Source: an uncultured Christensenella sp. (GTDB lineage: Bacteria; Bacillota; Clostridia; Christensenellales; UBA1242). From it: a stretch of 64,000 nt of DNA. The DNA lies in the NCBI GenBank assembly GCA_949841595.1, contig CATKZB010000005.1, forward strand, positions 2,178-66,177. Reading direction: 5' to 3'. The notes beneath the pieces were generated by a model. It was not told the origin of the DNA. It was given only the letters and a program-made list of their open reading frames with translations, and did no database searches. Of the stretch, positions 1 to 56,147 are shown piece after piece (within the stretch, counting starts at the first letter, position 1; each line of letters begins with the position of its first letter). The position numbers and the translations under genes were made by a program.

Positions 1-5
1 AAAAC

Positions 6-3000
6 TTGCCAGTTCTGTTGAATAATATCAGCAATCTTTTGACATATGGTAATGTAAATTTGGAATGGACTGGTCCTTGGGATTTTAAAGACAAGTGGGT
101 GTATTCAAACATAACTACCACTGGCTCTGCCGTTGACAGTTATCACCTGGTTACAAAGCCATTTATGACTTACACAGAAGGATCACATCACAAAGTATAT
201 CTTTACAACACAAAATCTGACGTGACACAAGGTGTGTTGGCTTATGTTGCCACAACCAATTCAGTTGTGACCAGTTCTCAATTATGGTTTTCAGAAACCG
301 GATATCAACATAAATGGGCATACAATCCTGAAGGCTATGGATTGGACAGTGTTAAAATCACTGAAGATTGTGATCTCTACACAATTTGGAGTCCTATTTC
401 ATCAACAGTTACCCTCAATCCAGATGGTGGCTCGCTTAATTCTCCAAGCTCAATGACTGCAGACTATGGAACAATCCTGAATATTCAAGATCCAACAAAA
501 ACAGGTTATACATTCAAAGGTTGGACAGGGGACACTGCATATATAGGTGCAAATGACGAAAAAACTTTTAATGGCACAAGTGATTTTTACACTTTGGACA
601 AAAAATATAAATTCAAAGATGCGATAACTGTCAATCTTTGGGGCTATATGGACAACTGGGCAGAATATGGCACGAGTGAATGGGCAATGAGAATGATTTC
701 ATGTACGGAAGGAGGAGGTTGGGACATTCAATCCTCTAATTCGGGTCAAGTTCATTTTGGAATTTATGACGAAGGTAAGGGTTATAAAAATATAGTTTCA
801 AACACTCTTTATTGGAAAGATTTAACAAGTGGCTGGCATATGTTTACTTTGACTTTTGGAGGTCAAACTGCCACAGCATATGTTGACGGGAATAGTATTG
901 GTTCAAGTGTTATAACAAGTGGCAGAATAGGTTATAATGCAAACAACACGATTTTTGTGGGAGCTGAAGCCGGTGGAAATGCAACAACTGCAGCAAGCAG
1001 CTATTTTAAAGGGAAAATCAGAAATGTGACTGTGGCGAACACTACTCTTACGTATGAAGAAATTTCAAAACTCTATGTTCAAACTCTTGGTTGGACCACT
1101 GACTATGATTATGTGGGAAGAAATGATGAGAAAACTTTTTCGGCTGATTCTGATGAATATACGATAGATAAAAAATATAAATACAACGACAAGTTTACTG
1201 TAAACTTTTGGGCTTATATGGACGATTGGGATAATTTCCCTACAGGTTCAAGACTTTTTGACGCTGGCAGTTGGTATGTTTATCGCAGTGGAAGTAGTAT
1301 AGTCGTCTATGGGTTGAATGGCAGTGTATCGCGATCTCTTGGGTCATTATCGACATTAGGTTCTGGTTGGCATATGTTTACAATTAGTTATACATATGGT
1401 AGCCAATTATGTTGGGGTGTGGATGGAAATATAAGTACTCTTACCACAGGTATCACCCGACCATCTATAACAACGGCTAATATAAAAATCGGGACAAAAT
1501 TCAGAGGAAAAATTAAAAATGTTTCAATAATACATAACGCCCTTTCAAGAGAACAATTAAGATACCTTTATACAACAAATTTGGGTTGGACAAGTGACAA
1601 AGGCTATGTTGATAAGTCTTATGAAAGAACCTTCAACGGAACAAGTGATTATTTCACTATTGACAGAAAATATATGTTTGAAGATGCAATCACAGTCAAC
1701 CTTTGGGGTTATATGGATGACTGGACTGGCTATGGTGTAAATGATTGGGCAATGAGAATGATTTCTTGCACTGAAAGTGGTGGCTGGAACATTGAATCAA
1801 CCCCTGATGGATTTATTAAATTTGCAATCTTTGACAAAGGGGTTGATTATCTTGCATTGACTGCCGAAAAAGAATGGAAAAATTTGTCAAGTGGCTGGCA
1901 TATGTTCACTCTGACTTTTAATGGAAATCAGGCGTTTGCTTATGTGGACGGAGAAACAATTAATTCTGTTTCTTTAACAAGTAAAAAAATTGGATATCAT
2001 CCTTCAAATTCTATTTTCGTTGGCGCAGAAGCTGCAGGCAGTGCAACTGCATCTGGTGGATGTTATTTCAAAGGAAAGATTAAGAATATTCAAATCTTGA
2101 ATTATGCAATAAATAATGTTTACAATTTATATAAAAGTGGACCAAGTGGTCAATTGGTGGATTTTGACACGGCTTACTCAACTCATTTTATGGCTGGAGA
2201 TGATACCTTAACTGCAAATTGGGAAACGGGTGTATATAGAGTTGTATTGGACAATCAAGAAGCAACCACAGCAGGAACTGAAGCTGTTTGGCTGAAATAT
2301 AACACAAATTGGTTTGCTGATAATAATGGAGCAATTTCAAATTCGAGCATTACTTCAATCACAGTTCCAAAAAAGACAGGGAATGCTTTTGGTGGCTATT
2401 ATACCGAACCTAATGGAAATGGCACGCAAATTATCAATGCAAGTGGAACCTTTGTTTCAACGACCTGCCTTTCTGAGAGTTGCACTCTTTATGCAAAGTG
2501 GACTTATGTAGCTCCACCAACAATTGAAAGAGCAACTTACGTTCAAAATGGAAAAGAAGGTTTTTACGTTTATGCTTATGTCACAAGTCAAGGCACAATA
2601 CAACAGGTTCAAACCTTGACAAGAAATGTGGAGACAGGACAAAATTATCCAGCTGATGGTTGGTGGTATAATTCTGCAGCTCGAATGACTTTGGGCGATT
2701 ACATAGTTGACGAAGAAACTTATAATTATCGAATCTATATTGATCTTGCAAATTTCGATTATAATTACACTCCTTATTGGACATTGATTAGAGCTTATGA
2801 CACTGTTGGAAATGGTGGCGACGGGAAGAACGATGTCACAGTGAATGTTAAACTTGGCTTTGATGTAACCTTTGAAAAGGGCCCTGCAACAGGTGGAACA
2901 GATTCTGTTTTCGCATATTATGGGGAAAATATGCCGGGAGTGCACGGTGAGAGTGACGACGATTATATTGATATGCCAACACCACCTGCAGGTTATTATC

Positions 3001-6000
3001 AAGGAATTTATTATTCAGGAACGGAGTATACAGAAAGTGCGACAATTCTTCCAACATATAGCAATTTGAATATAAGAAGAGTAAGCTTTGAAGGAGAGTC
3101 CTATGAATCGACTATTTTCCAAAAAGGAACATATGTTTATTTTGACTTTGCTTTAAATACTGACAATGAAAGCACGATCAAAGAAAATTTTGACTATGTC
3201 TCAATAAATGATAAGATATTAGGCGCTGTTTTTGATGGCAATCGTGTTTACGGCTCATATACAATAGGTGAAGGAGTTCAATATTTAGGAAAATATAGCT
3301 TTATTGATTTTAAAACTAAAGATCTCAACAACTTGGATATAATTGGTGTCAACAAACTTTATGTTATTCAACCTGAGGACAAATCGTATTATGATTGTGA
3401 CGGATATTATAATTGCACAATGGATGTTGCTGATGATATGACTTTGTTCTTGCAACTTGAAGGAGATATCTTCAACATAACTTTGGACAATCAAGATGCG
3501 AATACAACAGGAACAACAAGAATTCAATTGGAATATGCAAGTCGTTGGTGGCTGCAAGGAAAAGAAATTGCTGTCATAACAAAACCTGAAAAAGATGGAA
3601 ATTCTTTTGGTGGATACTTCACTGAAGCAAATGGCGCTGGAAAGCAAATTATTGACGCAAATGGAAATATTTTGCCAGGAAATACGACCTTTACAACGGC
3701 AAACACAACAATTTATGCAAAATGGGAAGCAAGTTCTTTCACAGTGACGGCAGATGCTAATGGTGGAACTATCACTGACTTGCCAGCTGAATGGACAATG
3801 GTTGAAGGTTCTGATGACACAAAAGCAACAGAAACTGTTCAATATGGTGGAACTTATATTTCTTTGCCATCAGCTGAGAGAACAGGATATACTTTTGCTG
3901 GATGGTTCACTCTTCCTGTTGGTGGAACAAAGATTGAAACAACTTCAATTTTTGAAGGTGTGAATGATTCAACTGTTATCTATGCACAATGGACGGCAAA
4001 CAGATATGAAATAAGTTTGGATGCGACGACTGGTGGAAGTTCACCTGCTTCAGTTTGGGTGGATTTTGACAGTAGTGATCTTTTTGACAGTGACGGTGTA
4101 ACAGTAAATCCAGTTGCAACAAAGGAAGGTTTAAATTTTGCAGGTTGGTATTTGCAAGGAACTGAAACTTTGCTTATTTCAAGTGAAGGAAGTCTGATTG
4201 CAAGTGTTGATGGCTACACAAACGAAAATGCACAATGGATCAGAGACGGTGGAGTCAGCTTGGTTGCAAAATGGAATGCCATGACTTATGTTTTGAAGTT
4301 TATGGATGGAGAAACTGAACTTAACTCAACAAATAAAGTTTATGGGACAGCTTTTACTGCTGATGAACTTTTCACTCCAACAAAAATGGGTTACACTTTT
4401 GGTGGATGGTTTGCAAATGATAAATTCACAGGTGATGCAGTTGTTGTGGATTCTGTTTTTGGAACAATCACAGCAACTTTTGACGATGTTTCAACGGAAG
4501 GTACAAATGCTTATATCTATGCAAAATGGAATGCAATCACTTATGAATTGGCATATGAAACCAATGGTGGCGAACCAATAACTCAGACACGTGAAAAAGA
4601 ATATAACACAAAGTTCACAGAAAACGAACTTCCAACTCCAACAAGAAAAGGTTACACTTTCTTGGGTTGGTTTAAGAATGTGGCTCTCACAGGAGACAAT
4701 CTTACAACAGAAGACTCTTTCAATGAGAATTCTGCAACATTTGTCACTTCAACAGAAAATAAAGTGACAGCTTATATCTATGCAAAATGGTCAGTTAACA
4801 CCATTGAAGTGACTTTGAATTTAAATAAAGCAAATGGCGAAACAACTGATAAAACAAGCACAAATCCAACTTTTGAAGGAGTGACAGCAAGTGCTGGTGA
4901 TGCAAATTTGGCTGTTGTTTACATAACTTATGCAACTACAAATATCTATGCTTCAAGGAGTGGAGAAAATTATCCTTATGCTCCTGTTGGAAGTGTTGTA
5001 AATCCAAAAGCAACAAGAGTAGGTTATAGCTTTGCTGGTTGGTTTACAGCTGAAACTGCTGGCGAAAAAATCATAGATGAGCAAGGCAATTTGGTGAGTG
5101 CTTTTGCTGCAAGTGGTGTGGATGGTTTGATGCTTTATGCACAATGGACGGCAAATTCTTACTCAATCACTTACAACCAAAACAAACCAGATGTTGCAAG
5201 CTCGACTGTCGAAGGAACAACAACAAATTCTGTTCATCATTTTGATGAATCAACCAATTTGACTGAAAATGACTTCACTCTTACGGGATGGAGCTTTGCA
5301 GGTTGGAACACTCAAGCTGATGGTTCTGGCGAAGCTTATTCAAATGGTCAGTCAGTTCTCAATTTAACAAATCAAAATAACATTGAAATTGTCTTCTATG
5401 CACAATGGACAGCAAACACATATACTTTGAATTACAACACAAATGGTGGAAATGAAATTGAAAGTGTGCAAAAAACTTATGACACTGCTTTCACAGCAAG
5501 CGAATTGCAAGCTCCTGTGAAAGACGGTTACACATTTGTCGGCTGGTATAATAATTCTGGTTTTGCAACGTTGGTTTCTGTTGGAGATATATTCAACAGT
5601 GCAAAAGCAACTTTTGCAGAAATTGGTCAAAAAGATACAAATGCAACAATTTTTGCAATGTGGAATGCAAGCAGATTTACTGTGACAGCAGATGCCAATG
5701 GTGGAACGATAACCGATGGAACTGGTGGCTGGGGTGTTGTTGCAAACACTGAAAATTCTCGTGCAACAAAACAAATAACTCATGGAGAACTCTATGGCAC
5801 ATTGCCTACAACTTCTAGAGTTGGTTACACTCTTTTGGGCTGGTTTACTTCAATCGAAGGTGGAACTCAAATCACTGATGCGTCTGTTTTTGAAGGAGTG
5901 GATGATTCAACTGTCGTTTATGCTCATTGGCAAGCAAACACAGTTCAAGTTACACTTGATTTAAACAAAGCAAACGGAACAACATCGTCTCCTAGCTTTG

Positions 6001-24000: not shown

Positions 24001-27000
24001 CGGATGGAAACGAAAATGAAGCTATCAGCATTGTTTACAGCAATGATAATCCAGATGGTTACACAATTGTTTACATCAGATATGTCAGATTGCATTATTC
24101 ACTTGTTTTAAACAAGTCAGAAGGAATACAGGCATTGTTGCCACAAGAAGTTGTGGAAAACACGGTTGTTTCAATTGAGGGTGAAAGCAGAGTTTATTAT
24201 GAAGCTCCATTTAACTTGGTTCTCATTATGTCTGAAGGTTATTCTTTGGATGAAATCACAGTTGTTGTGAAAATGGCTCAAGGTTCTTCTGCTTTGGATG
24301 AAGTAAACACTGAATGGGCACTCGTTGCAAAAGAAGATGGTTTCTATTACAACGAAACAAAAGTTTTTGGTTTTGTTTATGACAATCAAAATAAATATTA
24401 TGTTATTGACAAAATGCCTCCATTTGACATGGAGATAACTACAGAATCTTCAGCAAACGATTATAAGATTATTTACAACAGAAATTTAAATGATGAAGAT
24501 ACAACCAAGTCCGAAGAAAATGTTAAGTTTAATTCTTCTTATTCTATTAAACATGCAAGCAATTTGAGTTGGGCAAAACCTGGTTATCAATTTATTGGTT
24601 GGGCAAGTTCTAAAGAAAATGCAGAAAATAGAATTGCAATGTTTGAGTTTGAAAACACAAGCGACCTATCATTTGATAATTATCAGTTTGCTTATGACAC
24701 AGAACTTTGGGCAATTTGGAAAGCAGAGTCACGAGACTATAGTATCGAATATTATTTTGAAGAACTTGATGGAACATTCAAACTTTCTGAAACTGCTATT
24801 AAGACAGGTGAAACAGATGCAACAGTTTCATATGAACTGCTTGATTCAACAAAGACTGTTGGTTATACTTTTGATGAAAATAACAATGAAAATATTTTGA
24901 CAGGCACGATAACAGCAGGCACAAATTTGATTCTTAAAGTTTATTACACAAGAAATTGGTATAGTTTTACAATCAATTATGATTCAGGATTTAAGTCACT
25001 TTCTGCAAATTCTGGTGACAATCTTAAAAATGAAACATCAGCAGAAGATGAATTTAAATTTGTTGCAAAAGTCAAATTTGGAGCAACTGTTTCAATCGAA
25101 AAAGAAATCTATGAAGGTTTTGAGTTTGTGGGATTTGCTGAATTGTCTGCAACTGGAATCAACTTTACTTCAGAAGAATTTGTAATGCCAAAAGCTGATA
25201 TAACTTTAAGTGCAACCACAAAAGCAAAAACTTACACAATCACTTTCCAAGGAAATGGTGGAAGTTTTGTTGAAAATGGAGAAGAAAAGACAACTTACAC
25301 ACAAGAATTTGTTTATCTTTCTTCAAAAAATCTCTTGGCAAATAAATTTGAAAACACAGGATTCAATTTTGTAGGTTGGAGCATAACAAAATCAGATAAA
25401 GAAGAATTCTTTGGCAATGAAGAAACCTTTAAATATGATGTTGCAAAAGATTTGGTGGCTGTTGCTCAATGGCAAGAAGATCCAAACACCAAGTATACGA
25501 CAGAATATTATGTTCAAGACATTGAAGGCAATTACACAAAAGTTGGAAGTGTTGAACTTTATGGATTTACACATCAAGTTATCACTGACGAAATGGTGAT
25601 TGCTGGTTTTGCTCAAGTAAGCATAGACAAAAATGGCTACACCTTTGGCAGAATACGTGAAAATAAACCAACCATTGCAGCTGACGGAACTGCCATTGTT
25701 TCGGTTGAATATGATTTGGCAAAATTTGATGCAACATTCAACTTTGCTCAAATGGATGAAGAGTTGGGTGCTATTGGAATCGACAATGTTCAAGTTGTTT
25801 ACAATTCAACAAATGGAAATGTTGAAAAGACAGTTTCACACGGAGATGTTGAAAAAGTCGAATATACTTCAAATATCAAAGTTAAGGTAGTTCCTTCAAA
25901 AGGTTATAGATTCAAGCAGATAACTGTTTCAGGAAATGACATAAATCAAACTTACACAACGTTAGATGAAAATGGATATGTTACATTCGATATGCCTTAT
26001 AAAGACATTGAGATCAAGATTGAAGTCGAAATAGTTAAAGTGACAATACATTTCCACAAAGCTATCAAGGCAGATGAAACAACTTCAACTCAAACAGTAA
26101 CTTATCTTGATAATGTTGTTTTGAATGGACTTTTCTTTGAAGCTGGTTATACAATGCTTGGTTGGTCTGACCAAGAGAACGGCGAAAAAATTTATGATAT
26201 AAGAGAAGAGATAGTTTGTGACTTCACAGAAGATTTGCATTTATATGCAGTTTGGCAGGCAAATAAATATACGATTGCTTACAACAATAACACAGGTGTG
26301 GGAACTTTGGAAAACACTGAAGCTGTCTTTGACCAGGTTGTTGAACTTGGCGATGAAACTTTGCTTTCAAAGAAAGGTTACAAGTTTGTTGGCTGGACAA
26401 CAAATCTCGCAGAAAACTTGGTTATTCAAGTTGAAGATAAAGACAGCATCAAGACTGCCGGAATCTATTTCAACAAAACTGACGAAAAATATTATGCATT
26501 AAATCTTGCAACTGGTTCAGAATCAGATAAGGTGGTTACGCTTTATGCATATTGGTCTGCAATAAAATATTCAATAACTTATGCCTTTGAAGAGGGCAGT
26601 GAAACAACAAAATTTGCTGGTGAATTTGAATATGACAAATCATATAATTTGACTGCTTATGATATGATAAACTGGACAAACAGTGGCTATGAATTTGTTG
26701 GTTGGTATTATTATAATGATAATGGTGACAGAGTGGACATTCGCTGCGAAAAGAGTGAAACTCCTTCTGTTGAAAATTTGACTGCCACAGATGGAAAGGA
26801 TGTTGAACTTTATGTTATTTGGGGAAAAGGCAAGACAACTTTCACAATCAGAATTTTGCTTGAAACTCTAAATGGACAATATGGTGAAACAGAAGGCAAT
26901 TTCTTAGATTTGACAGACAATGAAATTGAAACAGAAAAAATTGTTTCAAGTGAATATGTTTATAATGAATATATAAGCCTGATGGAAAACTTTGAAGTTG

Positions 27001-29846
27001 TCGGTTTCCGTTATGATAATTCAATTCAAGATGAAAATGTCAGAATTGATGGAAAAGGCACAAGTGTTGTTAAAGTTTATTATTCAAGAAATTATTACAA
27101 TTTGATTATAAATCTAGATAACAACATTGACGAAGTTTCTATTTCAACAGAAACAGCGACTCATAGAGTTGTGTCAACAACAGCAAAAGCAGTTACATAT
27201 GCAGTTAAATATCAAGATAAGGTGACTCTAAGCCTTGTTGAAGCTGCAGGTTACAGCAATGGAAGTTTCTCTGTTGATATTGAAAACAGTGTTGAAGGTG
27301 CAATATTAGAAAGCGATAACTTTACAATATATATGAAAGGTGGCTCTGAGCTAAATCCTAAGGCTGGCAACATAACACTTAATACATCTGCTGAGGCTAA
27401 CAAAGATACTCAATTTACTATCAATGTATACAAACAAAACTTTGAAATGAACTATGATGAAACTCCTGATTATACAACATATTCAACTGGAGAAACCGAC
27501 AGTGAGATCTCTGTTGAAGTTGTTCAAAAACTTGTTGAAGAAAATGAAGCTTTTGATTTTGTTGGATTCACATTTGCACAAGTTATGTTTGTGAATGGAA
27601 CCACAATTTCTGGAAAAGGTGATACTGTTGTAAATGTTTATTACTCAAGAAATTTCCATGTTGTTCAAATAAACACAACAAATATCAAAGCCATAGCTGA
27701 AATTCCAGAAGGTGGAAGATACTTGTTTGGACAAGAGCTTGAATTCAACATTGTAGTTAAACAAGGTTATTCACTTGATTGTGTGGCAGGCTTTGCTTTA
27801 ACAAATTCTGAGGGTGAAGATTGGAGCGACTATGTTGTTGAACAAAATGACAATGTTTACACAGTTAAATTTACACTCCCTGATTTTGATGTCAACATCA
27901 AGGTGATGCCAGAAACAAACAAAGACACTGAATACACTGTTGTTTATCTGTTCCAGACACTTGAACTGGGATTGGACTATGTTGAAAATGAAATCTTTGA
28001 AAGAGTTGTCAAAACTGGAGAAACTGATGCACAAATAACAAGAGAAGGGCTTAACATTGATGAAATCAATTTGCAAGGATTCAATTTCTCTTATACATCA
28101 GTGGACACAACCCCAACATTCATCAATGGAGATGGCTCAACAATTGTTTACATCTATTTCAACAGAATGGTAAATTCTGTAAGCTTTGAATTTGTTGATG
28201 AAATGCATGGTTATATCTCAGAATCGCTTGTTGTTACAGTAAATGGAAAGCCAGCAAGTCAATTGTCAGATTTTACTTGGAATGTGGCATACGAACAAAC
28301 TTTTGTTGCTTCATTTGAAATGCATCCTGGATTTACCTTTGAAGGTTTTGAAGTGAATGGTGTTCCACAAGCCGAAACAACAGGACAGTCAATAACTTTG
28401 AATATGGGACTAGAAAACATCCAGATTAAGATAACAATTGTTGCAAGCACAGACACAAAATATCATGTTGAATATTACAAGCAAAATTTGGATGGAGAAG
28501 ACTCATTTGAATTGGTTTGGACAATTGAAAAAACAGGAACAACTCATACTGTGATTTTGCCTGAGATAATCCAAACAGAATTTGTTGACAACATAACCTC
28601 TCTTGAAGGTTATGACGAAGAGATGTTTAAGGGCTTGGAATTTGGTTATTACACAGCTTTGATGTATGGTGAAGATGCAACTGCGTTTATTCAAATTGCA
28701 GGAGATGGTTCAACAATAATCAGAATTTATTACACAAGAAGGATGATAAATGTTTCTATCACCTTTGATGAAACTCAGATTTTCTCTGTTTCTGGTCAAG
28801 GAAGATATGCATTTGGAAGCGAAATCACAATTTCAGCAACTCCAAGACAAGGATATAAATTTGATCATTGGATTATCAAAGGGGAAAGTATAACTGAAAA
28901 TGAATATACATTTGTGCTGGATGAAGATGTTGATATTGAAATTGTTTTGATTTCTGATTTTGGCGAAACAAATTACACTGTTGAACATTATTTCGAACAA
29001 ATTGAGGGAATTGAATACGAACTTAGATTTACTGAAAATAAAGTCGGAACAACAGGCAGTGCTGTTGTGATCGAAGAAATTCTGAAAGACATAGAAGGAT
29101 TTGAATATTCTCAATATTCAATAAGCAGTCCAAATTATGTTCTTGCTGGAGATGGAAGTTCAGTTGTCAGAATTTACTATACTTTGAAAGTGATTGAATT
29201 TAAAGTTTCTTATTCAAGTGGAATCAAGTCTATCACAGTGGAAGGATATAACAATTCTAGAAACTTGGAACTTGTGGGAACTGATCCTGTGACAGGAGTT
29301 TTGACTTACAGGTCTAAATATTCAAAGAGATTGAGTTTGAGTGTTGAACTTGAAGAGGGATTTGAACTTTATGGTTGGATTTTGAATGACAACAAACAAC
29401 CAGAACTCAATTCAAATGAAACTCGAGGATATTTGTTTGATGTGAGAAGTGAAGATTTCAGTTTGAGAGCAATTGCAATCACAAAACTTATCACAATAAG
29501 ATTCAATCCAAATAATGGTTCAAGTGAAATCATTGAAATGCAAGTTTATTACGGAAGTGAAAATGTAAGACTTAGAAAAAACACTTTCACAAACGGAAAT
29601 AACAAGTTTGTGGGTTGGGCTCTTTCTGCTGATGGAGATGTTGCATATTTTGACGAAGATGTAATTGAAATTGTTGATTTCAATGAAACATTGACTCTTT
29701 ATGCAGTCTGGGAGGCGCAACCTGGAAGCAATTGGTGGATTTATCTATTGATTGTGCTTTTGATTTTGCTTCTGTTATTGTTTATCATAATTCTTATCAT
29801 GAGAAAACGCAGAAAAGACAGAAACAGAATGATGAGCAAACAATAA
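6..29846 (+). CDS. giant modular cell-surface protein (putative adhesin/fibre), 5'-truncated by the window edge; at least 9,946 aa
   Basis: One stop-free frame runs from the window edge to TAA at 29844-29846, and it is open back to nt 3. The nominal TTG at nt 6 has no SD, and the first residues are not a signal peptide. The translation is strongly modular: 3 LamG-like units, about 55 GY(T/S)F.GW Listeria-Bacteroides repeats, about 20 MucBP-like modules paired with divergent InlB B-repeats, and a C-terminal hydrophobic helix plus basic tail. A rho-independent terminator follows. Confidence 0.9.
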   Translation: MPVLLNNISNLLTYGNVNLEWTGPWDFKDKWVYSNITTTGSAVDSYHLVTKPFMTYTEGSHHKVYLYNTKSDVTQGVLAYVATTNSVVTSSQLWFSETGYQHKWAYNPEGYGLDSVKITEDCDLYTIWSPISSTVTLNPDGGSLNSPSSMTADYGTILNIQDPTKTGYTFKGWTGDTAYIGANDEKTFNGTSDFYTLDKKYKFKDAITVNLWGYMDNWAEYGTSEWAMRMISCTEGGGWDIQSSNSGQVHFGIYDEGKGYKNIVSNTLYWKDLTSGWHMFTLTFGGQTATAYVDGNSIGSSVITSGRIGYNANNTIFVGAEAGGNATTAASSYFKGKIRNVTVANTTLTYEEISKLYVQTLGWTTDYDYVGRNDEKTFSADSDEYTIDKKYKYNDKFTVNFWAYMDDWDNFPTGSRLFDAGSWYVYRSGSSIVVYGLNGSVSRSLGSLSTLGSGWHMFTISYTYGSQLCWGVDGNISTLTTGITRPSITTANIKIGTKFRGKIKNVSIIHNALSREQLRYLYTTNLGWTSDKGYVDKSYERTFNGTSDYFTIDRKYMFEDAITVNLWGYMDDWTGYGVNDWAMRMISCTESGGWNIESTPDGFIKFAIFDKGVDYLALTAEKEWKNLSSGWHMFTLTFNGNQAFAYVDGETINSVSLTSKKIGYHPSNSIFVGAEAAGSATASGGCYFKGKIKNIQILNYAINNVYNLYKSGPSGQLVDFDTAYSTHFMAGDDTLTANWETGVYRVVLDNQEATTAGTEAVWLKYNTNWFADNNGAISNSSITSITVPKKTGNAFGGYYTEPNGNGTQIINASGTFVSTTCLSESCTLYAKWTYVAPPTIERATYVQNGKEGFYVYAYVTSQGTIQQVQTLTRNVETGQNYPADGWWYNSAARMTLGDYIVDEETYNYRIYIDLANFDYNYTPYWTLIRAYDTVGNGGDGKNDVTVNVKLGFDVTFEKGPATGGTDSVFAYYGENMPGVHGESDDDYIDMPTPPAGYYQGIYYSGTEYTESATILPTYSNLNIRRVSFEGESYESTIFQKGTYVYFDFALNTDNESTIKENFDYVSINDKILGAVFDGNRVYGSYTIGEGVQYLGKYSFIDFKTKDLNNLDIIGVNKLYVIQPEDKSYYDCDGYYNCTMDVADDMTLFLQLEGDIFNITLDNQDANTTGTTRIQLEYASRWWLQGKEIAVITKPEKDGNSFGGYFTEANGAGKQIIDANGNILPGNTTFTTANTTIYAKWEASSFTVTADANGGTITDLPAEWTMVEGSDDTKATETVQYGGTYISLPSAERTGYTFAGWFTLPVGGTKIETTSIFEGVNDSTVIYAQWTANRYEISLDATTGGSSPASVWVDFDSSDLFDSDGVTVNPVATKEGLNFAGWYLQGTETLLISSEGSLIASVDGYTNENAQWIRDGGVSLVAKWNAMTYVLKFMDGETELNSTNKVYGTAFTADELFTPTKMGYTFGGWFANDKFTGDAVVVDSVFGTITATFDDVSTEGTNAYIYAKWNAITYELAYETNGGEPITQTREKEYNTKFTENELPTPTRKGYTFLGWFKNVALTGDNLTTEDSFNENSATFVTSTENKVTAYIYAKWSVNTIEVTLNLNKANGETTDKTSTNPTFEGVTASAGDANLAVVYITYATTNIYASRSGENYPYAPVGSVVNPKATRVGYSFAGWFTAETAGEKIIDEQGNLVSAFAASGVDGLMLYAQWTANSYSITYNQNKPDVASSTVEGTTTNSVHHFDESTNLTENDFTLTGWSFAGWNTQADGSGEAYSNGQSVLNLTNQNNIEIVFYAQWTANTYTLNYNTNGGNEIESVQKTYDTAFTASELQAPVKDGYTFVGWYNNSGFATLVSVGDIFNSAKATFAEIGQKDTNATIFAMWNASRFTVTADANGGTITDGTGGWGVVANTENSRATKQITHGELYGTLPTTSRVGYTLLGWFTSIEGGTQITDASVFEGVDDSTVVYAHWQANTVQVTLDLNKANGTTSSPSFVEVSAIEGNNSKAFVYITYETKNIYGSRNGDVYPYAPVGDVIAPKAERDGYRFNGWFNGNTKVIDENGVLCENWTLKGEDGYGLLANWTALSYTITLDATTNGGSGGETSHSVKFDEQVKNISSLPSKEGYSFSGYYTEAENGTQIFSNEGAIIPNVSGYTGANGIWNFADNITLYAQFGVREFNVTASANGGTISVLNGWNGNAGDTAVSKGVKFGTSYGTLPVAERLGYTFLGWANSQDATTANITVETLGSAYDQNIWAVWQIDSYTITYKDGENEISDLIPTSYTVESNSVLPTYTKTGYAFLGWETLEDSGSWKVGQTYLNTSLNGKYGDVVLVAKWNANKHVITLNQNGATISSDPTSLEIVYETSPKLLIINPERTGYTFEGWAADENGTLLVVNTKGELLKNVNKFTNELGQWIRDEDVTLFAKWSGNKYTITYKANGGVGDDQTQEVIFGSAFTTKSNTTFTRTGYTLSSWDGEYSVVSTSYIYNTADDTVLNAQWTANNYKVSLDRQGATNGTQVVYLKYNTAWILADENENITTTVIESVTVPSRSGFNFNGYYTATNGVGNQIIDKDGKLVGSLTFTSDNTTIYACWTANRYEIVLNLEGGSLLAGSVVNNILYAEYGSSSIYLNAEGMAVSVPRATKNGYSFAGWWTAANAGNQIIDENGEYVVSSIFTNANKEWIGTTGTSLYAQWTADVYTITYDANGGEFASGINGSQTYKIDDDSVVIYGNNQVSRKGYTLQWKAEIVQGSTVSTIWSNATSESGYLAPSANVVGAYGNVKLVAQWTPKTTNIVLNLILNGGVGPTRHTAEYGQVVAQIQYSGEKPVGITTVAWKTGYTFDGFYTADGSGYKLFNNDGTVVETAVAGWLEEGGIWAWDEDILSGEKTNEVTLYAHWSANKYVLNYTVGEGVSKIVIAGSLDNGEKTTSGSVEAVYGQTVTFTAVPQEGYSITNWTAGTTANPTKHVGSVTTGANATANYTFVLNNSLFGVEEGATIPSNAVYYLASHATANEVQYRIQYRLQNADGTYGSANILGDYDALTGSVILLEEVKTTVGTVNGYNYAGNRYYTNSSASATGSNAESFMVLGDGSLVIELDYNFATYTITYEGGNGSYWLYGAKNTQNYTIFDEIQLKTSENIRRTGYVLSAWTPNNQGNWGTIDIAVDSVVSRGKYGDVTLTAVWTLESFDISYVLYNGNFVNGFTAPNSYTFTTSAVTLPTASNVNRLGYEFAGWKESISIKKWHNGFINATNGNFEISETYANSVYSEAFTLKAGKNYTLNDFAGDFRFAIFDLEGNYIESVYNRSYSPTQDVVVWLLLYSGATEAEKSAINISCDEVVETISTHSLGHRNYSALWTANKIEVELNLNDVNSGNGSTVATISPALEENKVYVKYDSKYVYANLSTTVSISPVAIRDGYTFLGWFTQDENKIFNADGTLIENWTSTEKVVLYAHWQANSYTVTLNGNGGSVTSLTLSANSNLQISTENSVVTATFDKEGTFNTTLSRTGFTFKGWSLSANEMSVDGITNGVIAGSNGTYTSTSTKILNLANSGNVDLFAIWEADYVEVSLELNKGEGSTNPTITQAVVYAKYGSTYSEAVTDKSNASTTKTGLLVPSRDGYTFAGWWTAQTGGTQITNSSVVSGTYEDGVYKTTLYAHWTANTYNVTYFKNSGDTTSVADTAKATFDQDYTVLAETNALFDFKVEGYTFANWQTSPTGGTIYNVGTIKYTAVGDLFLYAIRNINSYTVNYDANDSNYQGKATLIDGKTSSSVYLYTASTDISSRYTRTGYDFVAWNTSADGTGKTITDTNNIGLVSDANGSITLYAIWKPEAVKYTVYHMTQNVDAAVAGKTAFTVIDKSNYSQNSVETKEAQSGETLSQEILDGLYKSVAGFEKSETIVTNTDAFVVQADGTLEIYLLYLRQKQNNLVVSIGTGVASVSAKGFETRNITGVTVDDVITFSGIYFGESVTVSASTLSGYNNPTFTILNNSIESLTNNTFTMPNNEAKLSVSAVAGQVGYKINVYLMDVNGNYSVTESEVISDGLFATTDTEVLINSSIYTKTGFAFDSENANNVLKLTVSGDGTTTFKLYFERNKYNFIVSGVVNGNASSIAPNSVKVNNLAVSSYREQHYFEETVSISELVLHAGYDYIGYQITGAEKVDESAFSAKSVSVQAKDTEIKLYFTGKPFDIEYVLNDGTNVETNPTSYTTDTKAQTLKILNPTKTGYNFADWTVTFFDGTQINISDGNLIISANTYGKIVLTANWDAKEIEITLNQNGATTEGTTKVVAVYETTSEFEIVNPQKVGYTFLGWTTALNGEIYVVDTTGKLLSDVEGFTTSGKWTNAENVTLFAAWEANSYTVVFDGNGNTSGETASMSLKYGEKANLTANGFEKLGYTFIGWSTTANGEVVYDDEAEIENLTAENGAQVVLYAKWLPNTNSTYKVLVYQQDTDGNYDLTVFATDNRTGTTDSEISFEVGSTSISINGKVYEYAGFSLDATKTGITDTTKKTILADGSQEIKLYFSRNEYTLTILPNGGTYDGSDSSVTIKGLYEKTITLSVPQREGYDFEKWTLSGEGNISGNAYTFGLGNDTLTAEWTILSYTLNLSSDEGFKSVDATGDNVTIEEGVITVVYSSTVRLTYSLKDGYTFKAWNTTDATVSGNVFTMPAKNVSIEAVSEANSYTIRLNLNGGEGGSNTVDLSAKYDTPIALTTVETLGWSKPGFNFNGWALTEDATIGKYADGETVSNLATSGVFNLFAVWGAKMYSITFDSNGGEGSIPAMMNIPFESNVTLTLNNDAMAKTGYTFLGWSEDATATSPTYLDGATFKYTKVGAMTLHAVWKANSYTIVYNENTVDINGDALYGTVTGLTTETSATYNQKVTLNSNGFILTGYTFKGWKDKATDTVYEAGSTTTTAPNFTSEADGTYTLYAVWEAKTSTIQIVKETETIETIVLTYGKAYIDSDVKVVENIKPYEKVGYNVVGFKTSEEITFIDSLGNLMYNVSGLTKDGVWIAEDDFIANPQYIAKEYKVNFNVTDTDPSTTSDPTVPYENKLVSYDSTFGGNGVWPTPTLSGYFFDGWSTQSNYRAVALQVYCDLYNAGQPEENKKTLEQIRAEIQAKETTDNATYIFTRGEAKDAVEYVYVLTNYDSTNKVAMPTTTLVDVDVVQSSYILATDKITSDKSYFAQLESEAGLTVYATWIGRTDIRYTVYYLLEEVIIDKEVSDFKERSENTSYPDVVTNVGDKINHTINGVKRTYKLLKFETYDDALIADKVENYIHKYDIKGFNYCYYEYQDDTIQSVGNVGVSKIYAFYNRQQYELTLEAGVGISSVSAAVNDGVVKVSEGNYLVKYDAEVVLTYELKNAGYEFAGWVNGTGFTAVTVANGKFNMPSTELGVYLTATAKALEVEYKVEYYKQKLGSQEFEKDETLNKTLKGVTDTLAPILTLCGNVFGDGYNYSYYTVQSTKISTPVENGSLNIEGDGSLVIRLYYQRNAYSLAVERLEGDNGIASITGSGNYDFAEEVTVVAVVKPGYVFEGFKSSNKTIFADVAASDCEVSFDEETKLTTYSYTFNMPASALVLTAVTSKYLNTSFNIVYMFEERDQVGVYAENDTLSSGFAKTGNGETESNVTLAMIQTANKGRVPTVSGFEYANFGVLKDNNFEAVEIKGDGTSVVYVYYSRLTFTLTINYYRVDTTTEMASSFSIDVIHEGSYTKLSPEIIGYTADQTSVSWTMAGEDKTINVYYTPKTYVLTYDAGSGTVPSATVNFTIEDEITLSTPTNAGYKFLGWRVATVSTETNFVEGALLVDKIEKGAYGNVTLNAEYEAKSNKVVYNMTNTVLVSGAENITSGSTFSATVKAAEGYTLPGTIAVLVDGKPFENFTYENGVIQIAGTYVTGEITINVTSVANKYNAIVNTLHTQIKVEDDSEFVDTKTQEVSTGTTLTIYAKADEGYGTSGIVITVESGKATLSEVNELNGIYSVVVSGYTDSFTIVATASVNSYTLTVNPAKGVFNGSETSVTYIRNYKETVEISNPTREGYDFVEWQLSATVGETAKGKLENGVFTFGAGDDTLTAVWSPKRYEVVLNFNDSTFNNGSTNADISTVLTNEGQTLEISSGLLSMFVEFDNIYSKLYTSENGTDYVLFNDLVATRTGYTFTKWSSSVAGEDSVTENTKCETTSSLTIFAIWSANSYTLTVSRNLEEKLTVDVANATKTAEDVYSVKFDSKVTLTANVETGYHFTSWIEEDDVLSTQSQFEYSFVTAGNVTIKANATANSYTISYDSNGGEGLVADTNATYDVEVVLSNGEGFSKVGYTLSAWSFNGTTYQIGGKALNLTSADNGNVTMTAVWTANTYTIAFDVNGGSAISNMTADYNTAEEIVGKTTKKGYNFVGWSTSNGDESDSIEIDDLGEYEDITTYLVETNKIAGIYRYENKYYAFNLSATVQTITVYAIWEEGASSYKVEYYLKGLDDEYILDSEIVEEGLTIVSNSREISENVMTGMEVLIPQVEYKGFTLDLGVEGTLTNGVVLGDGSLTLKLFYTRNTYTVDFIVPDKGVKSSTATGEYQISTNVFKFNSSVTITVEEEKGYKFDNLTYLENTITTKTHTFNIQENVTIKIHVSALAYDYVVKFKFESLDDSNIYETDENISDVTLTANVDTEITYDMIKDSIQSVEGFTYKDFETGLVVKAVVEAEDKPTEVVVRYSRNIYQLVLQKTTGVEDISATTDDFYVVEDANNAVEDTKLYNVRYEAEVTLSCTVKTGYEFGSWSSNLVEGNKLDKMPAQNLTIYANLNKLQVKVSIRYNLENFAGTGYEVYKQMGEHGEEIYLDTAYGYTDSEIEQISDLKADVDGDSFILKTIEGFAYSTFESGVFVSGDGSTILDVYYLRNSVEINIDMTEGIESVIASASEEAGAYSFNYTYTEKAMFTAKYGATIVLEYQLVMVGVESGYTWVEFTGGVTKLDDVYSIVVGTEDINIMAVAKNNEYIITFQGNGGEYKEVVSEGTETEETVSSILTTLTQNVIYNRDVTLNANTFLREGYVFAGWNTQADGMGEAYEDGKTFTYLIIGNLELFAQWTPITYNIEYVANGGTGSMLGHENVAYDEDVTLRENEFARIGYTFNGWSYEADNTEIKYISKDTTTIRNLTASAGKTVTLKAEWLENTYTIVYNSNYSSVSDNADETTETESYNYSEEITVKSITEFNYSVTGYKFIGWAMEGVENHLMPDDKVSMLTAKDKDQVVLKAVWEAITYKIAFDKNTGIGEMAEISAVYDLPVTLPENTFTKIGYDFAGWALSADGEVAYLNKADVENLTSEEGETVTLFAVWETKTYTITYMPNGGIFDSTLTLTDESYVYEFTIEDSIQLLDQSKLSKVGHTLLGYTFVGETIEGNWKEIFIADINLNTLSSLTLDAGIYGNVTLAAKWQVNTYKLTIKYQFANGDTAAETLISDVNYGDSYSVASPVVVGYTPDVSTVVGTMDDVNGKSYTVTYAANVYTLTFNTNKVVGTGDVEFDYETAKVVYDDTYANAYIVVDEETVKIGLPTPQREGYSFGGWFFTTAYENEVLANQTVKIVTDTTIYAKWITETNTRYFVDYKFESLDGSEFVIDTTLQNTLTGVGTTDTAVTEDMVKALTANAYPIISGYSYKNIELTTITADGNARVVVNYVRNYYDLAVTAGDGIDTVSVSTTQTPSESQELDFYIENRENGHYSVRFGATVVLSYTIENVGYEFARYNTSDVEITDDSFDMVAKTVNVIVEAKAKRYIIEFVGNNGTFVEDEQTKNTYRQEGENVVYKAPVRLTENKFTRNGYSFLGWATSQADADNKIVSYADTAEFTLEEYVEIVNLYAVWGPMRYDLVVTGDIGIDKAKIVIYVDGTKVESDENKLSVYFDSNVKVYVTDTEETTTAVKGGYDFNCFKVNDIVVGNDEYCEFTLSGNTTVSLTTTPRNDTLFKVVYQKENLGKTGYTDVKEKIVEGTTDKVVTYEYLSQLKLIENYEGFVYSTFTDGNENEAISIVYSNDNPDGYTIVYIRYVRLHYSLVLNKSEGIQALLPQEVVENTVVSIEGESRVYYEAPFNLVLIMSEGYSLDEITVVVKMAQGSSALDEVNTEWALVAKEDGFYYNETKVFGFVYDNQNKYYVIDKMPPFDMEITTESSANDYKIIYNRNLNDEDTTKSEENVKFNSSYSIKHASNLSWAKPGYQFIGWASSKENAENRIAMFEFENTSDLSFDNYQFAYDTELWAIWKAESRDYSIEYYFEELDGTFKLSETAIKTGETDATVSYELLDSTKTVGYTFDENNNENILTGTITAGTNLILKVYYTRNWYSFTINYDSGFKSLSANSGDNLKNETSAEDEFKFVAKVKFGATVSIEKEIYEGFEFVGFAELSATGINFTSEEFVMPKADITLSATTKAKTYTITFQGNGGSFVENGEEKTTYTQEFVYLSSKNLLANKFENTGFNFVGWSITKSDKEEFFGNEETFKYDVAKDLVAVAQWQEDPNTKYTTEYYVQDIEGNYTKVGSVELYGFTHQVITDEMVIAGFAQVSIDKNGYTFGRIRENKPTIAADGTAIVSVEYDLAKFDATFNFAQMDEELGAIGIDNVQVVYNSTNGNVEKTVSHGDVEKVEYTSNIKVKVVPSKGYRFKQITVSGNDINQTYTTLDENGYVTFDMPYKDIEIKIEVEIVKVTIHFHKAIKADETTSTQTVTYLDNVVLNGLFFEAGYTMLGWSDQENGEKIYDIREEIVCDFTEDLHLYAVWQANKYTIAYNNNTGVGTLENTEAVFDQVVELGDETLLSKKGYKFVGWTTNLAENLVIQVEDKDSIKTAGIYFNKTDEKYYALNLATGSESDKVVTLYAYWSAIKYSITYAFEEGSETTKFAGEFEYDKSYNLTAYDMINWTNSGYEFVGWYYYNDNGDRVDIRCEKSETPSVENLTATDGKDVELYVIWGKGKTTFTIRILLETLNGQYGETEGNFLDLTDNEIETEKIVSSEYVYNEYISLMENFEVVGFRYDNSIQDENVRIDGKGTSVVKVYYSRNYYNLIINLDNNIDEVSISTETATHRVVSTTAKAVTYAVKYQDKVTLSLVEAAGYSNGSFSVDIENSVEGAILESDNFTIYMKGGSELNPKAGNITLNTSAEANKDTQFTINVYKQNFEMNYDETPDYTTYSTGETDSEISVEVVQKLVEENEAFDFVGFTFAQVMFVNGTTISGKGDTVVNVYYSRNFHVVQINTTNIKAIAEIPEGGRYLFGQELEFNIVVKQGYSLDCVAGFALTNSEGEDWSDYVVEQNDNVYTVKFTLPDFDVNIKVMPETNKDTEYTVVYLFQTLELGLDYVENEIFERVVKTGETDAQITREGLNIDEINLQGFNFSYTSVDTTPTFINGDGSTIVYIYFNRMVNSVSFEFVDEMHGYISESLVVTVNGKPASQLSDFTWNVAYEQTFVASFEMHPGFTFEGFEVNGVPQAETTGQSITLNMGLENIQIKITIVASTDTKYHVEYYKQNLDGEDSFELVWTIEKTGTTHTVILPEIIQTEFVDNITSLEGYDEEMFKGLEFGYYTALMYGEDATAFIQIAGDGSTIIRIYYTRRMINVSITFDETQIFSVSGQGRYAFGSEITISATPRQGYKFDHWIIKGESITENEYTFVLDEDVDIEIVLISDFGETNYTVEHYFEQIEGIEYELRFTENKVGTTGSAVVIEEILKDIEGFEYSQYSISSPNYVLAGDGSSVVRIYYTLKVIEFKVSYSSGIKSITVEGYNNSRNLELVGTDPVTGVLTYRSKYSKRLSLSVELEEGFELYGWILNDNKQPELNSNETRGYLFDVRSEDFSLRAIAITKLITIRFNPNNGSSEIIEMQVYYGSENVRLRKNTFTNGNNKFVGWALSADGDVAYFDEDVIEIVDFNETLTLYAVWEAQPGSNWWIYLLIVLLILLLLLFIIILIMRKRRKDRNRMMSKQ
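546..2141 (+). repeat. three tandem LamG / concanavalin-A-like (Laminin_G_3-type) modules inside the giant ORF (546-1115, 1116-1610, 1611-2141)
   Basis: A protein pattern of about 165-190 aa repeats three times: (N)DEKTF.G.SD.YT.DKKY.F.D..TVN.W.YMD.W ... GWHMFT.T ... VDG ... IFVGAEA ... YFKGKI.N(V/I). The final 'F.G.I..V.I.N..L' motif is typical of Laminin_G_3 domains. Confidence 0.6.
2230..29715 (+). repeat. protein-level repeat array: Listeria-Bacteroides repeats (Flg_new type), divergent InlB B-repeats (Flg_new_2 type) and MucBP-like modules
   Basis: Units of about 70 aa recur, each ending ...G(Y/F).F.GW....dG..y......(L/I)YA.W. From about nt 11500 there are also about 20 units of about 90 aa (Y.V.YY...dG.Y....G.T......GF.Y.....G.V..DGS....(L/V)YY.R..Y). 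Each is followed by a unit of about 75 aa (..G(V/I).S(V/I)S..G......v.f...VTL.a....GY.F..W......F.MP...v...A). Counts are by eye. Confidence 0.7.
29733..29843 (+). other. C-terminal transmembrane anchor plus basic tail of the giant protein (no LPXTG)
   Basis: The sequence is WWIYLLIVLLILLLLLFIIILIM followed by RKRRKDRNRMMSKQ and the stop codon. The residues before the helix are EAQPGSN, with no LPXTG-like motif. Confidence 0.75.
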
Positions 29847-29854
29847 TGACTAAA

Positions 29855-29885
29855 AAAGGATAGAAAACACTCTATCCTTTTTTTA
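29855..29885 (+). terminator. rho-independent terminator of the giant gene
   Basis: Hairpin aaaggatag / ctatccttt with an 8-nt loop, followed by a T-run, starting 9 nt after the stop codon. Confidence 0.8.
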
Positions 29886-31093: not shown

Positions 31094-31134
31094 TGTGAAT
31101 TAAATTTGCTTTATTATGTTTACAGGAGAAAAAA

Positions 31135-31767: not shown

Positions 31768-31772
31768 AAAAT

Positions 31773-31799: not shown

Positions 31800-31800
31800 A

Positions 31801-32499: not shown

Positions 32500-32510
32500 A
32501 AGACCTCCAA

Positions 32511-56119: not shown

Positions 56120-56147
56120 GAAGAAAATAGAAGCAGGAGGATTGCAA

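Follow-up and report, generated by a model that had tools for sequence, protein, structure and literature searches.

Our analysis shows that the 29.8-kb open reading frame at the 5' end of the window (the whole stretch of 64,000 nucleotides that was analysed) is genuine and encodes the bulk of one membrane-anchored surface protein of ~10,226 residues (~1.1 MDa), made by an uncultured gut bacterium of the Clostridia whose genome is probably small. The giant ORF is not an assembly artefact. It is a well validated example of a bacterial protein of ~1.1 MDa, backed by five assemblies, by purifying selection and by syntenic orthologues. As to its function, the protein is probably, though by no means certainly, a fibrillar adhesin or tether with a LamG head.

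The reading frame and its missing 5' end

Frame +3 is free of stop codons from nt 3 to nt 29843 (9,947 codons) and closes with a TAA at 29844-29846, which agrees with the stop-free 29.8-kb frame described in the earlier note. The giant ORF occupies 3..29846 on the forward strand, its 5' end being truncated by the window edge; in the ORF listing it appears as a nominal ORF 6..29846 of 9,946 aa with a TTG start. The GC content of the window is 34.06% (34.1%), and the stop frequency computed from its base composition is 0.079 per codon, so that an open run of 9,947 codons would arise by chance with a probability of ~1e-358. Pfam domains are present in this frame in all of the 10 chunks of 995 aa into which it was divided. 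The longest open stretches in other frames that overlap the giant gene measure 224-225 aa; that the rival frames are short had been noted before, with a figure of 223 aa.

The missing part of the gene can be sized from conspecific contigs, in which the full-length gene lies in the interior of the contig and counts 10,225-10,228 codons; ~281-283 N-terminal residues (about 845 nt) must therefore lie upstream of the window. The contigs that should contain the 5' end are ENA ERZ28572814 scaffold_12 (about positions 39,100-69,800), ERZ28571351 scaffold_858 (from nt ~309), JGI 3300006217 Ga0081461_1000043 and Logan DRR855202_1774 (nt 1-3,200). In two assemblies the contig breaks off 225-310 nt ahead of the start of the gene, a hint that a repeated element lies there. 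The proposal that the true start is upstream and that the protein is longer than 9,946 aa is borne out by these contigs. Its placement in the size class of the largest bacterial proteins needs correction, as the protein is indeed large but with ~1.1 MDa stays far below the reported maximum of 85,804 aa (10.1101/2023.11.21.568195).

The missing N-terminus was not recovered by any of several searches. Homologous-protein searches gave no close match to aa 1-1000 or to aa 1-134, the all-against-all search of representatives lacked the protein's own cluster and had a top match of 33% identity, and the C-terminal fragments of three loci (L017, L019 and L020) had no exact match in the protein collection. 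Scans of genome and metagenome contigs recovered just LamG relatives at 36-55% identity.

Assembly, repeats and selection

Giant genes rich in repeats are notorious for mis-assembly, and some of the orthologues in MAGs look split. One could argue from this that the repeats of the giant ORF were collapsed or joined into a chimera during assembly, or that it is a pseudogene open by chance, but the evidence is such that we consider this explanation effectively refuted. In five assemblies made independently from different samples (Logan, three from ENA, and JGI) the gene is called complete, with 10,225-10,228 aa; the strains behind them are 96.5-99% identical and the gene length agrees within 3 codons. 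No tandem arrays were detected in the giant gene by TRF, exact intragenic DNA repeats are no longer than 21 nt (maximum in codon-shuffled controls, 15-19 nt), and the intragenic repeats have 60-81% identity at the DNA level, with a single 45-nt pair at 89%. Two of the three orthologue splits (L023 and L025) fall at scaffold N-gaps; the third (L026) has no N-gap and consists in a frameshift close to nt 967 of the locus. An alternative genetic code or a true splitting of the gene was also considered for the orthologues and was rejected for L023 and L025, where the scaffolds contain runs of N. A dead gene is contradicted by the substitution pattern: dN/dS is 0.14-0.17 over the last 2,903 codons of conspecific strains, there are no internal stops in 10 conspecific loci, and the indels are single in-frame codons only. 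Judged from these comparisons, the giant gene is under purifying selection.

The worries about mis-assembly and gene stability that had been raised earlier are thus dispelled by the shortness of the exact repeats and by the agreement of the assemblies. The ~100 domains are so far diverged that no recombinogenic DNA repeat is left, and this divergence, together with the positional orthology of the domains described below, suggests how such a gene stays stable.

The distal region and the LamG domains

The visible protein begins with a distal region of no recognisable family (3..404, forward strand as for all features of the protein; aa 1-134), for which no homologue was found, followed by the first Flg_new (Listeria-Bacteroides) repeat (405..572; aa 135-190). 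Three tandem LamG / ConA-like domains come next (543..2150; aa 181-362, 373-530 and 536-716), and a beta-rich region without a family assignment (2421..3470; aa 807-1156) leads from the head to the stalk. An AF2 model of aa 836-1156 made without an alignment had a pLDDT of 38 and was unusable.

The LamG domains match Laminin_G_3 (PF13385) with 87.1 bits and an E-value of 1.7e-24 in three stretches of aa 1-995 (cut-off 27.6). When the LamG profile was compared with the PDB, ConA-like lectin/glucanase and neurexin LamG structures were matched, the best of them weakly (E 6e-7) and belonging to an uncharacterised S-layer-domain protein; a single-sequence PDB search with the LamG head gave no match. 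The GH16 structures in the PDB are matched by the profile only at E~1e-3 and over ~60 residues, and the catalytic ExDxxE motif of GH16 (pattern E.D.{1,2}E) does not occur in aa 171-720. The type of LamG domain seen in the window recurs, at 45-55% identity, in numerous smaller surface proteins from other phyla. On these sequence comparisons the triple LamG is a probable glycan-binding head, and since the match to solved structures is weak, the class of its ligand is a guess.

The stalk

The whole stalk consists of ~100 small beta domains and can be divided in two. Segment 1 (3471..8570; aa 1157-2856) contains ~20 consecutive Flg_new repeats with a period of ~85-90 aa, and in segment 2 (8571..29636; aa 2857-9878) Flg_new, Flg_new_2-like and 19 so-called M modules are interleaved, from the first M module (nt 9063-9335) to the last (nt 28974-29207) and beyond. 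By HMMs built from the protein's own repeats we counted 50-57 Flg_new, ~17 Flg_new_2-like, 19 M and 3 LamG modules, which together cover ~75% of the visible protein; the other ~25%, aa 1-134 and 807-1156 included, has no assigned fold. The ectodomain has a pI of 4.4 and is 11.8% Thr.

The hmmscan check that had been proposed for four Pfam families upheld three of them. Apart from PF13385, Flg_new (PF09479) exceeds its cut-off of 27 in 10 of 10 chunks, with 32.3-184 bits and 42 separate stretches, TIGR02543 being likewise matched, and Flg_new_2 (PF18998) exceeds its cut-off of 23.6 in 7 of 10 chunks, with up to 61.5 bits. The fourth family, MucBP (PF06458), was absent from the chunk scan and at its best, in aa 7383-7490, reached 21.3 of the 23 bits required. 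The same module (22149..22472) is the only one that passes Muc_B2 (PF17966; 25.9 bits against a cut-off of 23.5, E 1.5e-5), matches elsewhere in the protein being sub-threshold. With LamG, Flg_new and Flg_new_2 all above threshold, the reading as a single giant modular surface protein composed of binding and stalk modules is upheld.

The M module is not annotated by Pfam, and its predicted structure has a pLDDT of 94.4. The top Foldseek matches of this model in the PDB are MucBP-type domains of the surface proteins YwfG, Mub (type 2 repeat) and lmo0835, with TM-scores of 0.42-0.55; these matches are weak (E 0.04-0.6, none at E<=0.001). A sequence search of the PDB with the M-module profile found no match; of the 19 M modules, not one hits PF06458 and a single one hits MucBP_2 (PF17965) at E 0.02. 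The M module is tentatively called MucBP-like from the weak fold match of its model. A galectin-like insert was considered for aa 5797-6023 (Pfam Gal-bind_lectin, E 0.019) and was rejected, the sequence being two further Flg_new_2-like units; this stretch has a close counterpart in just one orthologue.

The C-terminal anchor

Only one TM-like segment is found in the 9,947 aa, at the extreme C-terminus. This sole predicted transmembrane helix, WWIYLLIVLLILLLLLFIIILIM (29733..29801; aa 9911-9933), is followed by the basic, presumably cytoplasmic tail RKRRKDRNRMMSKQ (29802..29843), which has a net charge of about +7 and the ending ...[MI][MR][SA]KQ of which is kept in distant relatives. The membrane anchor that the earlier note placed at the end of the protein is hereby located. 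Helix and tail are part of a conserved C-terminal cassette consisting of LYAVW, WWxW, the TM helix, a K/R-rich stretch and a terminal xMSKQ. There is no LPXTG-type motif in the last 100 aa, and the C-terminal 147 aa match none of the curated NCBIfam sorting signals (LPXTG, PEP-CTERM, GlyGly-CTERM and others); the NCBIfam matches that they do give are sub-threshold and composition-driven, to TM proteins.

Orthologues and genomic context

Related species possess syntenic orthologues that measure at least ~7,700 aa, and NCBI names the relatives of the window protein 'InlB B-repeat-containing protein'. The membrane-proximal ~4,500 aa (16224..29843) align with the orthologues of other species in one colinear HSP at 28-41% identity and match them domain for domain, i.e. 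by positional orthology; the distal half is the part that varies between species.

A terminator-like hairpin flanked by A/T runs (29852..29883) begins 6 nt past the stop codon. It is followed by genes for a DAP_DH_C-like dehydrogenase, Tmk, YhhN and an alpha/beta hydrolase (29954..33512), and genes of these four kinds come after the giant gene in 4 of the 4 related species examined. Pfam and NCBIfam scans of the 34 kb downstream found no sortase, secretion or chaperone gene, in accordance with what had been claimed for this region, and no sortase gene was found anywhere in the window. The spo0A gene is in the window, 4 kb downstream of the giant gene.

Proposed function and its alternatives

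In the mechanism that we propose, one polypeptide of ~10,226 residues would be exported, presumably by Sec with an N-terminal signal lying outside the window, and would be held in the cytoplasmic membrane by its C-terminal stop-transfer helix, the basic tail staying in the cytoplasm. The ~100 tandem beta domains, of the Flg_new / InlB-B-repeat, Flg_new_2 and putative MucBP-like beta-grasp types, would form a long, acidic, Thr-rich stalk, probably with the geometry of an extended rod. Its distal tip would carry the three ConA-like LamG domains and ~400 uncharacterised residues. By analogy with MUB and Ebh the fibre may be about 0.3-0.6 um long, and the stalk would hold the head, which probably binds glycans, several hundred nm outside the wall, where its ligand could be host mucus, a food particle or another cell; both the target and the binding of carbohydrate are what we infer. 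An anchored stalk with a distal head would therefore work as a fibrillar adhesin or tether. Fibrillar adhesins have been described as enriched in Thr and as having stalks of Flg_new (PMC9210967); counting against this reading, equally large surface proteins of staphylococci act as anti-adhesive shields and not as adhesins (PMC6548404).

That precedent opens the way to a different explanation, namely that the protein is a steric shield, spacer or coat whose size repels cells, phages, antibodies or surfaces, or masks shorter adhesins, as the S. aureus proteins Ebh, SasG and SraP were shown to do (PMC6548404). At ~1.1 MDa Ebh is as large as the giant protein, and the degree to which it shields adhesins depends on its size (PMC6548404); the difference of not more than 3 aa between strains fits selection on length. 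However, the three LamG domains are conserved at the distal end and are of a type common in smaller surface proteins, which binding explains more easily, and variability of the distal half between species is what one would expect of a ligand-facing region. We thus regard a shield as quite unlikely. A fibre that is structural to the spore or the envelope (an exosporium nap or a wall scaffold) and not an adhesin would suit the acidic, Thr-rich composition, the sporulation genes kept in the lineage (PMC12306168) and the spo0A gene 4 kb away. The proximity of spo0A is no operon link, since the intervening genes are on the opposite strand; moreover, the C-terminal TM anchor with its basic cytoplasmic tail points to the membrane of the vegetative cell, and collagen-like or BclA-type repeats are absent. 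Such a fibre is very unlikely.

The same molecule could also be a tether to a partner cell, essential for holding the microbe or host cell that supplies metabolites, and would then be analogous to the structures by which Patescibacteria and Omnitrophota attach themselves. The closest named relative of the UvrC encoded here is that of Ca. Caccovivens (80%), a genus in the GTDB family UBA1242, the type genome of which has 34.22% GC and 1.1 Mbp (PMC8035907); the GC content of the window is close to this and Spo0A is present. Genomes of UBA1242 measure 0.67-1.6 Mb, lack many biosynthetic pathways and standard transporters and have kept sporulation genes, and dependence on a partner was proposed for them without experiments and without mention of the giant gene (PMC12306168). 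Taking the ~1.1-Mb size from these relatives, the 30.7-kb gene would make up ~3% of the genome, and even so it has stayed intact, under purifying selection and syntenic across species. On the other side, no partner is known, and the placement in the family comes from the identity of one protein and from GC; an essential partner tether is, in our opinion, unlikely but a serious candidate. Quite unlikely is the further combination in which the fibre would be a conserved attachment organ of partner-dependent UBA1242, genomes of ~1 Mb that would spend ~3% of their DNA on one syntenic gene because it codes for the tether to a feeding partner or host, and the C-terminal cassette an unrecognised anchoring or sorting signal that would engage a cytoplasmic or membrane partner. 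If the host does belong to UBA1242, a ~1-Mb genome invests more in the giant gene than in any other single item, and the gene is an obvious attachment candidate for abundant uncultured bacteria of the chicken and livestock gut.

Comparison with known systems

The fibrillar adhesin or tether that we prefer can be compared with the fibrillar adhesins of Monzon and Bateman (PMC9210967), with which the giant protein shares great length, a Thr-rich stalk of folded domains, a distal N-terminal putative binding region and a C-terminal surface anchor. Of the features that define these adhesins, the repetitive folded stalk and the surface anchor are predicted from its sequence and the distal LamG is the putative adhesive domain. 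The giant protein is several times larger than typical fibrillar adhesins, its anchor is a TM helix and not LPXTG, and its repeats have diverged strongly and do not vary in number. The MUB/MucBP proteins of lactobacilli form a long fibre of tandem beta-grasp modules, which the giant protein may resemble: Mub-RV and the Mub type 2 repeat are among the weak fold matches of the M module, and one module passes Muc_B2. MUB is, however, LPXTG-anchored, while in the giant protein there is no LPXTG motif and PF06458 stays below threshold.

Ebh of Staphylococcus aureus ends, as the giant protein does, in a C-terminal membrane-spanning helix and a positively charged tail, and its rod consists of alpha-helical FIVAR/GA-type bundles. 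Both are single-polypeptide rods of Gram-positive bacteria in the same mass class (~1.1 MDa for Ebh, PMC6548404), but the stalk described here is all-beta (Flg_new, putatively MucBP-like), Ebh has no LamG head and the sequences are unrelated. Periscope proteins, whose length and copy number of near-identical tandem repeats vary between strains, have a surface stalk of many repeated domains as well; here, in contrast, there are no near-identical repeats, the length varies by not more than 3 aa and the domains are positionally orthologous.

With the giants of Omnitrophota (up to 85,804 aa) the protein has in common a possibly partner-dependent bacterium and a proposed role in attachment. Those proteins come from small-celled bacteria and have numerous TM regions and SecA-like DEAD domains (10.1101/2023.11.21.568195), whereas here there is a single C-terminal TM helix and the Pfam scan found no SecA-like DEAD domain. 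This kind of protein is known: in animal gut metagenomes, West-Roberts et al. 2023 found giant proteins of Clostridia that carry Listeria-Bacteroides repeats, and proposed adhesion for them (10.1101/2023.11.21.568195). The protein described here is of the same class (Clostridia, animal gut, at least 10,000 aa, dominated by Flg_new), to which that survey devoted one sentence. Our analysis goes beyond it with the syntenic orthologues, the LamG head, the 19-copy M module, the C-terminal cassette and the proposed link to a reduced genome.

Integrity of the giant gene

Our data confirm that the giant open reading frame is real, and this rests on three independent lines of evidence: repeat content, five assemblies and selection. 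Frame +3 is free of stop codons from nt 3 to 29843 (9,947 codons) and closes with TAA at 29844-29846, which bears out the single giant ORF of the earlier note. The window has a GC content of 34.06%, and with 0.079 stops expected per codon from its composition the chance of such an open run is about 1e-358; alternative open stretches that overlap the gene reach at most 224-225 aa. The 5' end is cut, because the frame is already open at the window's first codon. Complete conspecific genes encode 10,225-10,228 aa, and therefore the window is without about 281-283 N-terminal residues, so the real N-terminus lies upstream, as had been claimed. The visible protein, without this N-terminal part, has a mass of 1.099 MDa.

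Repeat mis-assembly is not indicated. TRF found no tandem arrays in the gene, its dispersed DNA repeats are 60-81% identical, with the exception of one 45-nt pair at 89%, and no exact direct repeat exceeds 21 nt, where the longest in codon-shuffled controls is 15-19 nt. Repeats so diverged and short leave nothing that an assembler could collapse or RecA could recombine. Conspecific loci from other samples and other assemblers were located via the neighbouring Tmk protein and its relatives of at least 90% identity. The same locus was found in Logan DRR855202, in three ENA metagenome assemblies and in JGI 3300006217, with 96.4-99.0% identity to the window across the part of the locus compared. 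The complete gene was called in all five (10,226, 10,225, 10,228, 10,225 and 10,228 aa), by coordinates starting at least about 225 nt from the contig end in each. None of the ten loci covering the final 548-2,903 codons contains an internal stop, the indels examined among conspecific loci are single codons and in frame, and against the window the seven loci that cover the full 2,903 codons have a dN/dS of 0.14-0.17, the other three, with fewer codons, one of 0.05-0.13. The contigs behind two of the independent ENA assemblies (L013 and L014) break 225-310 nt 5' of the start codon, which suggests a repeated element there, for example an rRNA operon, IS or tRNA array, and makes the 5' region harder to recover.

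Domain architecture

The LamG-like, Listeria-Bacteroides and divergent InlB B-repeat modules proposed from the sequence all pass Pfam cut-offs (PF13385, PF09479 and PF18998): Laminin_G_3 matches with 87 bits in three stretches, Flg_new occurs in 10 of 10 chunks of 995 aa (42 stretches) and Flg_new_2 is above its cut-off in 7 of the 10. A finer map, for which profile HMMs were trained on the repeats of the protein itself, assigned about 75% of the sequence and counted 50-57 Flg_new units, about 17 Flg_new_2-like units and 19 copies of an unannotated M module. The visible protein begins with a stretch of no family (aa 1-134), followed by one Flg_new, three LamG domains (aa 181-716), another Flg_new, a beta-rich stretch of no family (aa 807-1156), about 20 Flg_new in a row with no other domain type (aa 1157-2856), and a mixed Flg_new, Flg_new_2 and M stalk to aa 9878. 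A short linker leads to aa 9911-9933, the protein's sole hydrophobic segment, which agrees with the C-terminal membrane anchor proposed earlier, and to the tail RKRRKDRNRMMSKQ. The last 100 aa contain no LPXTG motif; the ectodomain has a pI of 4.4 and 11.8% Thr.

The three LamG domains belong to a subfamily found, with 42-55% identity, in many proteins of 600-1,700 aa from Bacteroidota and Clostridia that combine LamG with Flg_new. The subfamily profile matched the S-layer-domain protein 4qvs among solved structures (E 6e-7) and also reached GH16 glucanases (E about 1e-3) and neurexin LamG domains, all three groups having a ConA-like fold. The GH16 catalytic motif was not found in the LamG head, and a lectin-like function is plausible.

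The claim of MucBP-like modules needs correction. MucBP (PF06458) is nowhere above threshold, its best match, at aa 7383-7490, reaching 21.3 bits (cut-off 23), but the same residues pass Muc_B2 (25.9 bits, cut-off 23.5). The M module (80-95 aa; consensus xTxYxVxYxxxxxxGxxY...GxTD...GFxY...IxGDG...YYxRNxY) gave no convincing match to a MucBP model in any of its 19 copies, and its profile matched no PDB sequence. An AF2 model from the alignment of the 19 copies (pLDDT 94.4) has as its best PDB neighbours the MucBP-type domains of the surface proteins YwfG, Mub type 2 repeat, Mub-RV and lmo0835, although these matches are weak (E 0.04-0.6, TM-scores 0.42-0.55). The defensible description is therefore a MucBP-like fold outside the Pfam MucBP family.

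Relatives and evolution

Neither the giant protein nor any protein more than 50% identical to it was found in the two protein databases searched, which returned distant relatives. Its last 1,200 aa match 8,608 proteins, and the top matches align colinearly and have a C-terminal cassette in common: LYAVW, 5-10 residues, (W)WxW, a TM helix of about 22 aa, a K/R-rich stretch and terminal [IMY][MRL][SA]KQ. This cassette is kept in at least 15 distant relatives (window 29733-29843; C-termini of P0145-P0315) and matched none of the curated NCBIfam sorting-signal models. The extreme end beyond the basic stretch is invariant.

Whole-protein BLASTP against five relatives of 5,416-7,895 aa, most of them truncated at contig ends or scaffold gaps, gave one HSP each, of 4,600-5,150 columns and 28-41% identity, pairing aa ~5,400-9,947 with the C-terminal ~4,500-5,000 aa of the relatives; for the distal half the alignment is only weak and loses register. 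Downstream of the gene, each of the four related species examined has the same DAP_DH_C-like, Tmk, YhhN and hydrolase genes; the first is called in three, and in L024 its position is taken by an uncalled 391-aa ORF only. For L025 (6,082 + 1,662 aa) and L023 (at least 3,294 + 4,694 aa), the apparent split of the giant gene falls at a scaffold N-gap. Identity between species is 52-77% for the neighbouring genes and about 28-33% for the giant protein. The domain array is thus an old one of fixed order and number that diverges fast, which also answers how such a gene stays stable, a question raised in the earlier note.

Host and genomic neighbourhood

The UvrC of the window is 80-82% identical to "Clostridia bacterium" MAG proteins and to a Candidatus Caccovivens sp. 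protein. Caccovivens corresponds to GTDB genus UBA11517 (Christensenellales, family UBA1242), with a type genome of 34.22% GC and 1.1 Mbp (PMC8035907), against 34.06% GC in the window. Genomes of UBA1242 are reported to have 0.67-1.6 Mb and to be metabolically deficient and possibly partner-dependent, with sporulation genes unexpectedly retained (PMC12306168), and the family comprises late-succession "specialists" of chicken caeca (PMC13155120). The giant gene thus probably resides in a reduced genome of about 1 Mb, and the spo0A of the window agrees with the reported retention of sporulation genes. If our inferred UBA1242 assignment holds, the gene makes up about 3% of the genome.

A terminator-like hairpin with flanking A and T runs lies 6 nt past the TAA, and directly beyond it is the DAP_DH_C-like dehydrogenase (29954-31093, +), which ends in a Cys/His-rich tail (...CCCDEGCDCHSHNHECDC). 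The spo0A gene (33718-34602, +; Spo0A_C, E 1.9e-38) is probably over-extended as a 294-aa TTG ORF, judging from calls of 249 aa in relatives. Five kb past the giant gene, a 539-aa protein with an N-terminal signal or TM segment (34713-36332, +) carries Flg_new_2 (28.8 bits, cut-off 23.6) and a near-threshold Flg_new (26.8 bits, cut-off 27); this small paralogue-like surface protein is kept in all sufficiently long conspecific contigs. Three proteins of 480-690 aa (38489-40357, 47895-49949 and 60459-61913, all +) begin with a lipoprotein or signal-type N-terminus, match no family in Pfam or NCBIfam and add to the uncharacterised surface proteins of the organism. Also downstream are uvrC, three tRNAs and metK (40725-41813, -), directly preceded by a SAM riboswitch (41878-41968, -; RF00162, 58 bits). 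A dedicated secretion, sortase or chaperone gene is absent from the 34 kb downstream, as the first reading had noted.

Possible traces of mobility were also seen. A 793-aa protein (56118-58499, +) without a Pfam match hits Mycoplasma-type ICE/conjugation families of NCBIfam (MMCAP2_0566, E 1.8e-31; Mbov_0396, E 2.3e-21). It adjoins a tRNA-Met (59040-59116, -) whose final 27 nt (59040-59066) are exactly repeated 106 nt away at 58934-58960, and this duplication could be an att site left behind in a Clostridia genome by an integrative element. The JGI strain (L022 10725-20498) differs past tmk: in place of YhhN, the hydrolase, spo0A and further genes, it carries a type I restriction-modification system, a MazE-like antitoxin, a Rep protein and a serine recombinase, a strain-variable island adjoining the giant gene.

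Proposed role and comparison with known systems

Export would begin with a Sec-type N-terminal signal, expected 5' of the window; the C-terminal helix would halt transfer, with the basic tail staying cytoplasmic according to the positive-inside rule. An extended stalk would be made up of about 100 beta domains, and the LamG head at its tip would bind a putative carbohydrate carried by mucus, food particles or another cell. MUB measures about 180 nm for about 3,300 aa, and Ebh about 320 nm. By analogy with both, the fibre could be 0.3-0.6 µm long.

In one rival reading, which we consider unlikely, the protein tethers the cell to a partner and is peculiar to a dependent way of life. A shield acting by its size, like Ebh, SasG and SraP (PMC6548404), seems to us rather improbable, and a fibre of the spore or envelope very improbable. 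That the ORF is an artefact is effectively excluded. The interpretation as a giant surface protein is supported, with corrections.

West-Roberts et al. (10.1101/2023.11.21.568195) described genes of 10,000-30,000 aa with Listeria-Bacteroides repeats from gut-metagenome Clostridia and suggested adhesion; our protein resembles them in lineage, in reaching at least 10,000 aa and in these repeats. Its relatives are named "InlB B-repeat-containing protein" by NCBI, and Flg_new is recognised among the domains that build the stalks of fibrillar adhesins (PMC9210967). The kind is thus already known, and this example of it is unusually well supported: new are the demonstrated intactness and selection, the domain-for-domain orthology, the 19-copy unannotated M module, the conserved anchor cassette and the probable reduced-genome context. 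In contrast to "periscope" proteins, whose repeat array is homogenised, the array of the giant protein is diverged and fixed, which is the opposite arrangement.
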